Notes under the pieces: model-generated
The model's database searches: none
What the model saw: the letters and a program-made list of their open reading frames with translations, nothing else
Told to the model about the DNA's origin: nothing
Part shown: piece by piece, positions 55,704 to 56,548 of the stretch
Numbering within the stretch: the first letter of the stretch is position 1
Layout of the letters: the number at the start of each line of letters is the position of its first letter
Virus record (IMG/VR): IMGVR_UViG_3300025723_000013
Direction: 5' to 3' (one strand)
Origin: a virus
Taxonomy: Duplodnaviria > Caudoviricetes
DNA length: 64,000 bases
Position numbers and translations under genes: made by a program

Positions 55704-55736
55704 TGGAGCGGAATACGAGATTCGAACTCTTATTCC
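55704..55736 (-). pseudogene. tRNA-Gly 3' remnant forming a T-arm/acceptor minihelix
   Basis: GGAATA-A-GAG-TTCGAAT-CTC-G-TATTCC-GCTCCA. Confidence 0.65.
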
Positions 55737-55758
55737 TAAACATGTGCTAAATAGTAGC

Positions 55759-56523
55759 ATGAAAACTTCTATTTGTCAACAATGTTTTAAAGTATTTACA
55801 ATAACTCCTGGATCATATGGAAAATTCTGTTCTTTGTCTTGCGGAACTATTTTTAGAAATATTAATAAATTAGAGAAAATTAAGTCTATCTATAATTCTA
55901 ATCCTAAAAAGTGTAGTGGTTGTTCTTCTGCTTTATCTTATGAAAAGAGAAAAAATAGATATTGTTCTGTTAGTTGTGCAGCAAAAATTACAAATCAAAT
56001 CCCTAGGAAAAGAGGCCCGGATCCAAAAGAAAAGCCCCAGTATTGTTCAGTGAAGTTCTTTTTTTGTAATGCAACGAATCAGTGGTATTCAAATAGAAAT
56101 ACCGATGGCTCTTTTCGTCGAGCATCTCCGTATACCAAAAATGATAAGGAAAAATATTATAATGCTGCGAGGTTTAGATTCAACGTTTACCACTATCCAG
56201 AAGAGTTTGATATACAATTAATAGAATCTGCGGGTTGGTATACGTGTCCAGGTAAAAAAAGAAAAAACAAAACCAAAAATATCGGTGGCGTAAGCAGAGA
56301 CCATATCATATCTATAAGTTACGGCTACAAGCATAATATTGATCCCTCTATTATTTCTCACCCTGCAAATTGCAGGATAATATTGCATTCTAGAAATAAA
56401 GAAAAAGCAGATAAATGTGAGCTATCGCTAGATCAATTGTTAATAAGAATACAAGAATGGAATCGAAAGTATACCGAGCGGATGACAGGATTCGAACCTG
56501 CGACGAACAGCTTGGAAGGCTGA
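55759..56523 (+). mobile_element. Free-standing HNH-type homing endonuclease gene inserted in tRNA cluster
   Basis: N-terminal CxxC...FCSxxC zinc fingers; SRDH..S..YG....IDP.IISHPAN...N..K; opposite strand, AT-rich, TAAATA 5 nt before ATG. Confidence 0.8.
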
Positions 56524-56548
56524 CACTCTACCCCTGAGTTACACCCGC
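56477..56548 (-). tRNA. tRNA-Gly(TCC), CCA not encoded, antisense-overlapped by HNH gene
   Basis: GCGGGTG/CATCCGC, TCAGC-CTTCCAA-GCTGT, discriminator T followed by CGG. Confidence 0.88.

Follow-up and report, generated by a model that had tools for sequence, protein, structure and literature searches.

A putative homing endonuclease cassette with its own replacement tRNA appears to occupy a split tRNA-Gly gene in a large freshwater phage

Introduction

In a stretch of viral DNA of 64,000 nucleotides, referred to here as the window, an ORF apparently encoding an HNH-type nuclease ends antisense to a tRNA-Gly gene, and a CCA-ended piece of a second tRNA-Gly lies on the far side of that ORF. How did a nuclease gene come to be lodged in a tRNA gene, and to which tRNA did the displaced piece belong? 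A reading made from the window alone (the sequence-only reading) had proposed insertion of an endonuclease gene at the 3' end of the tRNA, with the displaced piece folding as a minihelix that would be a glycylation substrate or only a scar. These proposals are considered here in light of related phage loci.

Components of the locus

The same DNA as that of the window was found on a 284-kb contig and in lake metagenomes, with the source being part of a large freshwater phage. ARAGORN and Rfam placed the locus in a cluster of tRNA genes on the minus strand. Its components are as follows:

55704-55736, minus strand: 3' stump of the resident tRNA-Gly (positions ~51-76, with CCA end; 55704-55729) plus 7 nt of cassette sequence
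55745-55759, plus strand: late-promoter-like TAAATA (55748-55753) in a 5-bp inverted repeat reaching the start codon, conserved in homologs
55759-56523, plus strand: ORF of a 254-aa putative homing endonuclease (invariant residues, weak fold matches)
56465-56477, minus strand: trailer arm of the clamp stem (positions 73-85), antisense to ORF codons K-Y-T-E (from folding and covariation)
56476-56548, minus strand: replacement ("donor") tRNA-Gly(TCC), complete to C74, without encoded CCA (ARAGORN; Rfam, 63.5 bits)
56549-56561, minus strand: leader arm of the 13-bp clamp stem, forming the left end of the cassette and pairing with 56465-56477 with one G.G mismatch
56566-56581, minus strand: 5' stump, positions 1-16 of the original resident tRNA-Gly(TCC)
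55700-56821, no strand assigned: recently transferred tract, holding the 3' stump, the cassette, the 5' stump, a 57-aa ORF and the 3' end of a tRNA-Leu

The cassette corresponds to the ~859 bp between the stumps and comprises the leader arm, a complete tRNA-Gly without CCA, the antisense HNH-type gene and the putative TAAATA promoter; it contains one ORF only, which is not an integrase. The unit from leader arm to CCA measures ~859 bp (0.86 kb) in most loci and recurs in about 50 related phage loci. The features earlier described at 55704-56548 were all present, but the locus extends to 56581, with the 5' stump and leader arm having been overlooked.

Several other sequences on the minus strand of the window were noted. 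A tRNA-Trp(CCA) at 55534-55607, with a CCA end and an irregular acceptor stem, was missed by ARAGORN and scored 35.4 bits with Rfam. A tRNA-like sequence of ~100 nt at 49339-49440, with an intact T arm and a CCA end, scored 26.3 bits, below the Rfam gathering score. Unusually long tRNA genes were seen for Ile (anticodon TAT; 57535-57629, 95 nt), Thr (51854-51938, 85 nt) and Asn (55207-55295, 89 nt). The 57-aa ORF (56598-56771), which has no Pfam or PHROG match, travelled with the cassette as part of the 1122-bp tract, and a short ORF resembling it is found at about 52161-52330.

The resident tRNA-Gly gene is split

Sequence comparison identifies the displaced piece as a 3' stump, covering positions ~51-76 of the tRNA-Gly(TCC) native to the phage. 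When viral contigs were searched, the exact remnant pattern was not found, and a looser pattern yielded four phage tRNA-Gly(TCC) genes without an HNH gene (L151-L154), the last 24 bases of which match the window remnant at 23/24 positions. The 5' ends of two of these genes (L153 and L154) also match 56566-56581, on the other side of the cassette, at 15/16 bases; this 16-mer is unique on both strands of the 64-kb window, apart from the donor tRNA. As the same genes match both flanks of the cassette, the resident gene was split. It lacks about positions 17-50, namely, the middle of the gene, including the anticodon arm. The earlier proposal of insertion at the tRNA 3' end is thus not supported: the break fell well inside the resident gene, and the complete tRNA belongs to the cassette as its cargo.

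The two stumps behave as parts of a single former gene. In the window, all acceptor-strand positions of the 5' stump (7/7) find a pairing partner in the 3' stump. In the 16 loci with both stumps, a locus's own 5' and 3' stumps pair, with all seven pairs formed in 13, and at three variable stump positions, Watson-Crick pairs number 38/48, as compared to 28.4 upon permutation (p=0.0001). More than half of the loci present no clear 5' stump. A remnant is found on the far side in 48 loci, with 31 of the 33 distinct remnants ending in CCA, and in 0/46 loci is its acceptor strand that of the neighbouring complete tRNA. Across positions 54-74, remnants differ by a mean of 2.9 mismatches from the nearest of 93 free phage tRNA-Gly, vs 7.8 from the neighbouring tRNA, a comparison that favours the larger free set, yet the nearest of all donors is usually farther as well. 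Since 5' stumps usually reach position 16-23 (about 33 in L079, judged by eye) and 3' stumps start at 48-53, the break point probably lies between the anticodon loop and the variable loop, at about positions 33-48.

Alleles without the cassette were also found. The cleanest pair is offered by L219 (empty) and L020/L021 (filled), where 22/23 of the first bases and 24/24 of the last bases of the L219 gene flank the L020/L021 cassette, and the downstream DNA is 92% identical. Similarly, L154 is the empty form of L023/L024, and L276 is the empty form of L041. No exact empty allele of the window's own phage was seen among contigs found via three neighbouring proteins, all of which are filled. HNH-less relatives carry a single intact tRNA-Gly, not two decaying copies. 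Two parts of the earlier view are upheld, namely, that a mobile element of endonuclease type lies in a tRNA gene and that the far piece was displaced from a tRNA-Gly.

The replacement tRNA overlaps the nuclease gene

The ORF and the donor tRNA overlap at 56476-56523, i.e., by 48 nt or 16 codons including the stop codon, in agreement with the earlier description of the ORF end as antisense to the T and anticodon arms; the shared stretch runs from the acceptor 3' strand of the tRNA-Gly(TCC) through its T arm and variable loop to the anticodon arm, which it includes. In most close homologs, the protein C-terminus is likewise the translated antisense of tRNA-Gly. Indeed, among 53 homologous loci fetched at an amino acid identity of at least 50%, tRNA-Gly(TCC) lies antisense at a fixed offset in 50; two of the three exceptions end inside the gene, and the third (L044) has the tRNA at another offset. 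On a nuclease tree of 35 rows, built with the tRNA-overlapping tail removed and with L079 and partial genes excluded, donor tRNA type clusters, with few switches (6 changes vs 11.8 when shuffled).

The window donor ends in U73-C74, followed by GG. As had been noticed earlier, it is the sole CCA-less one of 13 tRNA or tRNA-like ends in the window, with the 10 other ARAGORN tRNAs, the tRNA-Trp and the 49.4-kb piece all having CCA. CCA is also missing in 28/30 distinct donor tRNAs, as compared to 8/222 other tRNAs of the same loci. A reading-frame constraint was considered as the cause of CCA loss and rejected: CCA would encode Met, Leu or Val, and one homolog (P0079) has Met at this point. The disorder of the protein tail beyond residue 241 (see below) also counts against a coding constraint. 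In T4, CCA belongs to the recognition site of SegB (PMC2330249). Donors further differ from free tRNAs of such clusters in that G51 is found in 3/29 donor alleles vs 50/69 free cluster tRNAs, although donor sequences are mutually related, such that the 51:63 contrast was not built from independent events. A 5-base variable loop is also commoner in donors. As position 63 is a third codon position, the 51:63 difference is not forced by the reading frame. Avoidance of G51 and loss of CCA might confer self-immunity on the donor, a notion to be taken as a lead only. No CCA-adding enzyme (PF01743) was found in two related phage records, one of them complete.

Other tRNA arrangements were observed. 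L188 has a free tRNA-Gly that hardly differs from the commonest donor type but ends in CCA, with neither leader arm nor nuclease; it is possibly a source allele or a product of cassette loss. In L040, the donor tRNA-Gly has a 16-base variable region. Distant clades of the protein (32-38% identity) are antisense to tRNA-Cys(GCA) or tRNA-Trp(CCA) (L068-L073, L112-L116 and L099-L103), with CCA-ended remnants on the far side in L068-L073 and L099, and still other clades are encoded on the same strand as tRNAs, often after tRNA-Ala(TGC).

A clamp stem encloses the CCA-less donor

The 13 bases found 5' of the donor tRNA pair with positions 73-85, and the fold predicted for the window scores z -5.1, with 0/200 shuffles as good. 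At least 7/10 Watson-Crick leader/trailer pairs are seen in 28/30 donors vs 0/213 other tRNAs and 0/111 free tRNA-Gly genes. Native leader/trailer combinations form 251 pairs vs at most 228 in 10,000 swaps, a test that is inflated by kinship of the loci; two-sided changes nevertheless recur at several positions (-3:75, -4:76, -6:78 and -8:80). On the tRNA strand, G.U pairs number about 47 vs about 8 A.C, an excess that points to the clamp acting in precursor RNA rather than as a DNA cruciform. The clamp goes together with CCA loss: in the distant Cys (L112) and Trp (L099) clades, too, it surrounds donors that lack CCA, and no clamp is seen around donors that keep CCA (L033, L041, L047 and L068-L072), with L045 having neither.

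The clamp may prevent the neighbouring 5' stump from pairing with the acceptor strands of the donor; alternatively, it may be a processing signal. In E. coli, RNase P is inhibited when the leader pairs with RCCA (PMC9433436), and the clamped tRNA could therefore follow an unusual maturation route. More specifically, although this is rather improbable, the clamp could be a dedicated maturation signal, cut with a 2-nt stagger by a double-strand-specific nuclease of the RNase III, Mini-III or M5 type, leaving G1 and a U73-C74 overhang to which CA would then be added, independently of RNase P. The fact that U73-C74 is kept in donors while 75-76 vary fits such a signal, as do the restriction of the clamp to CCA-less donors in the Gly, Cys and Trp clades, the excess of G.U pairs and the RNase P inhibition just mentioned. 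Were this so, a bacterial-type tRNA would have an RNase P-independent route, and a homing cassette would drop CCA, part of its target, yet supply a working tRNA. A role as intrinsic terminator found no support for either hairpin of the locus, as no consistent U run was seen by eye.

The encoded protein

The likely start codon is the ATG at 55759, giving a protein of 254 aa; the open frame begins at 55744. TAAATA is found five bases 5' of this ATG in nearly all homologs and, by analogy with T4 (PMC2988022), presumably functions as a late promoter. A search of viral contigs with the single protein gave no match, and an alignment-based search found homologs. In all, the protein has 233 homologs. 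The HNH-type residues on which the earlier assignment depended were found to be invariant in 94 aligned homologs. These are H182, H201, N204 and N213, together with eight Cys in four pairs, with D181 being kept in at least 90%. Cys4 zinc-binding modules occupy the N-terminal part of the protein, followed by a C-terminal HNH-type (beta-beta-alpha-metal) domain and a disordered 13-aa tail. The C-terminal domain was modelled with confidence (pLDDT 91), with H182, N204 and N213 on strand-strand-helix elements. By contrast, residues 242-254, antisense to the tRNA, had pLDDT <50.

In structure comparisons, nearly all of the top matches were HNH-type nucleases. The top 50 Foldseek rows were all of this type, with E-values of at least 0.35, none significant. 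The best VIA matches were weak, namely, BrxU (Z 4.4, rmsd 3.7, 87 aligned) and Gme HNH (Z 3.5), and no fold match was better than Z 4.4 or E 0.001. Atlas feature matches of 0.91 and 0.90 were to HNH clusters, with 52% of members of the 0.91 cluster having PF01844. No Pfam HNH match was obtained for any of the 94 family members, the PDB sequence search gave no HNH match and neither Pfam nor PHROGs gave a GIY-YIG domain match. The earlier HNH assignment accordingly stands as far as the invariant residues are concerned but finds no Pfam match, and the fold matches are weak. Because the motif residues are invariant and the fold matches, although weak and without Pfam support, are consistent, we take the protein to be a divergent HNH-type nuclease with putative zinc-binding DNA-recognition modules.

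In L079 (4001-4285), the nuclease gene is cut to 94 codons by an in-frame internal deletion, with the donor tRNA, clamp and both stumps kept; such a shortened copy with both ends intact is as expected of a decaying homing gene. In the cultured jumbo phage Cronobacter phage GAP32 (JN882285; L002, 2420-3235), a 28.5% homolog abuts an antisense tRNA-Met without CCA. Further homologs are found in Serratia phage BF, Erwinia phages and Vibrio phage 2.275.O. GAP32 and the other phages with homologs are possible laboratory models.

Movement of the cassette between phages

Cassettes that are 92-100% identical lie within flanks only 46-66% alike (92-99% for L012/L016/L020, L028/L029 and L023/L024). A different phage (L004, L005 and L139) has a 98.9% identical counterpart of the window's 1122-bp tract (55700-56821), yet the DUF2452 gene common to the two phages is only 71% identical. 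One end of the tract is at the CCA of the stump and the other is in the T arm of the tRNA-Leu. As empty alleles exist and near-identical cassettes lie in unrelated flanks, sequence comparison indicates that the cassette is mobile between phages.

Alternative explanations

The 33 nt at 55704-55736 can form a 9-bp fold with a single A.G mismatch; the folding energy is -9.6 kcal/mol (z -2.8), a value matched in 4/200 shuffles. This upholds the earlier description of the far piece as a CCA-ended 3' part of a tRNA-Gly forming 9 bp with an acceptor strand differing from that of the intact tRNA, with G71 and C72 of the tail GCUCCA being unpaired. That the stump is a functional minihelix RNA under selection, i.e., a glycylation substrate, a decoy or an RNase P processing signal, is nonetheless very unlikely. 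The window piece does present minihelix geometry (positions 3-7 joined to 49-76), good hairpins arise from differing sequences in L030, L031, L033, L062 and L079, z is below -2 in 8/33 remnants, folding is 1.4 kcal/mol more favourable in native than in swapped remnants (p=0.058) and the last 8 bases are almost invariant. However, when pairing in the minihelix register was counted over the 33 remnants, counts at each position equalled those of swapped halves, showing no conservation beyond composition; C72 was in register in 1, G71 in 9 and C70 in 7, and several remnants form no fold. Renewal from each recipient, along with service as a homology arm, accounts for the invariance of the end. G1-C72 and C2-G71 are identity pairs for glycyl-tRNA synthetase; because pairs 1-72 and 2-71 are missing in the window piece, its glycylation is unlikely. 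Of the two fates earlier offered for the minihelix, glycylation substrate is thus not supported, and the scar fits best. Weak selection for a hairpin might still act on remnants, and the CCA end might aid processing of the downstream tRNAs.

Two further explanations concern the cassette as a whole. In one, the complete tRNA would be the resident, and the far piece would be its duplicated or displaced end, the element having entered at the 3' end of the tRNA and produced an att-like duplication. The far boundary is indeed sharp at CCA, as in tRNA-targeting integrative elements. Still, the remnant never matches the adjacent complete tRNA and does match the 5' stump opposite, the empty gene in empty/filled pairs matches both stumps and not the complete tRNA, and the cassette lacks an integrase. 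Given L219 vs L021, this explanation is largely refuted and only barely credible. In the other, the cassette would spread without nuclease activity of its own. Ordinary recombination would move it as a tRNA-replacement module, with selection favouring its recoded tRNA-Gly, for example in escape from host anti-tRNA defence, and the protein would have another role. This, too, is very unlikely. In its favour, the fold matches are weak and nuclease activity is putative, donor tRNAs differ systematically from free ones and tRNA-cleaving defences select on phage tRNA loci (PMC13096335). It is opposed by the invariant HNH-type residues and zinc modules, by the fact that resident genes consistently lack the same middle part and by the distant clades at tRNA-Cys and tRNA-Trp, which share the same layout, as expected if the protein picks the target.

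Proposed mechanism and its implications

The reading preferred here is that a free-standing homing endonuclease cassette very probably occupies the tRNA gene by replacing it. With the anatomy and mobility of the cassette being well supported by the sequence comparisons, the mechanism is one that we infer from them. The protein would be made late in infection and would cut the intact tRNA-Gly gene of a co-infecting phage at about positions 33-48; SegB offers a precedent for nucleases that cut tRNA genes (PMC2330249). Repair would then copy the cassette in by means of short homology, located on one side in the D arm or in upstream DNA and on the other in the stretch from T loop to CCA, such that the "minihelix" would be a scar doubling as homology arm. 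The recipient gene would be destroyed and the cassette tRNA would take over; insertion would therefore cost little, as with intron splicing. The replacement tRNA would resist cutting by virtue of its changed bases, namely, the 51:63 pair, the longer variable loop and the loss of CCA, and the antisense overlap would weld tRNA and nuclease into one unit. The 13-bp clamp would act on the tRNA precursor, in folding or processing, with CCA then being added enzymatically.

Such a mechanism would offer a selfish nuclease gene a non-splicing way to reside inside an essential-type RNA gene, by destroying the target and carrying a recoded spare, in the manner of an engineered gene drive that includes a rescue copy. 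It could explain split and CCA-less tRNA genes in large phages and would provide a route for tRNA allele swapping between distant phages. The family yields sharp predictions as to target isotype, a cut at about positions 33-48 and candidate immunity bases, and the tRNA-Cys and tRNA-Trp sister clades form a natural series for change of HNH target. The covarying clamp, in turn, raises the question of how a CCA-less, base-paired tRNA precursor matures.

Comparison with known systems

Integrative elements and prophages that enter tRNA genes create attL and attR, leave a CCA-ended tRNA fragment at the far side and preserve tRNA function. Here, by contrast, there is no integrase and no direct repeat (0/46); the target loses its middle and receives a whole foreign tRNA. 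In group I intron homing, an endonuclease-bearing insert inside a tRNA gene is likewise made harmless. The present cassette differs in containing no ribozyme, with an Rfam scan of 49-61 kb revealing no intron family, and deletion of the resident anticodon arm means that splicing could not restore the tRNA. No description of a cassette joining a nuclease to a whole tRNA, or of the clamp, was found in the literature searched, made up mostly of papers available without subscription.

The cassette resembles SegB of T4 and T6 in being a free-standing endonuclease gene in a phage tRNA cluster, with a late promoter with a hairpin and tRNA targets (PMC2330249; PMC13096335; PMC2988022). SegB, which recognises 27 bp from the T-loop motif to CCAR (PMC2330249), is however a GIY-YIG enzyme encoded between tRNA genes, acting on many isotypes with relaxed specificity, and its target is neither split nor replaced. 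The window element is instead HNH-type, addresses one isotype (Gly-TCC) and lies inside the target gene, in antisense overlap with its own clamped replacement tRNA. With its filled and empty alleles, its own putative TAAATA promoter and no intron, the cassette would work like intronless homing (PMC2988022).

Closest in logic, by analogy, appear to be the replacement-end endonuclease genes of fungal mitochondria, as in atp6 of Allomyces macrogynus, rps3 of Ophiostoma and atp6/cox2 of Phlebia, which interrupt their target, restore its function and displace the native end downstream (PMC4019555). Those elements encode LAGLIDADG or GIY-YIG enzymes, enter protein-coding genes and supply only a C-terminal part, whereas the present cassette supplies a whole tRNA and leaves both native ends as stumps.
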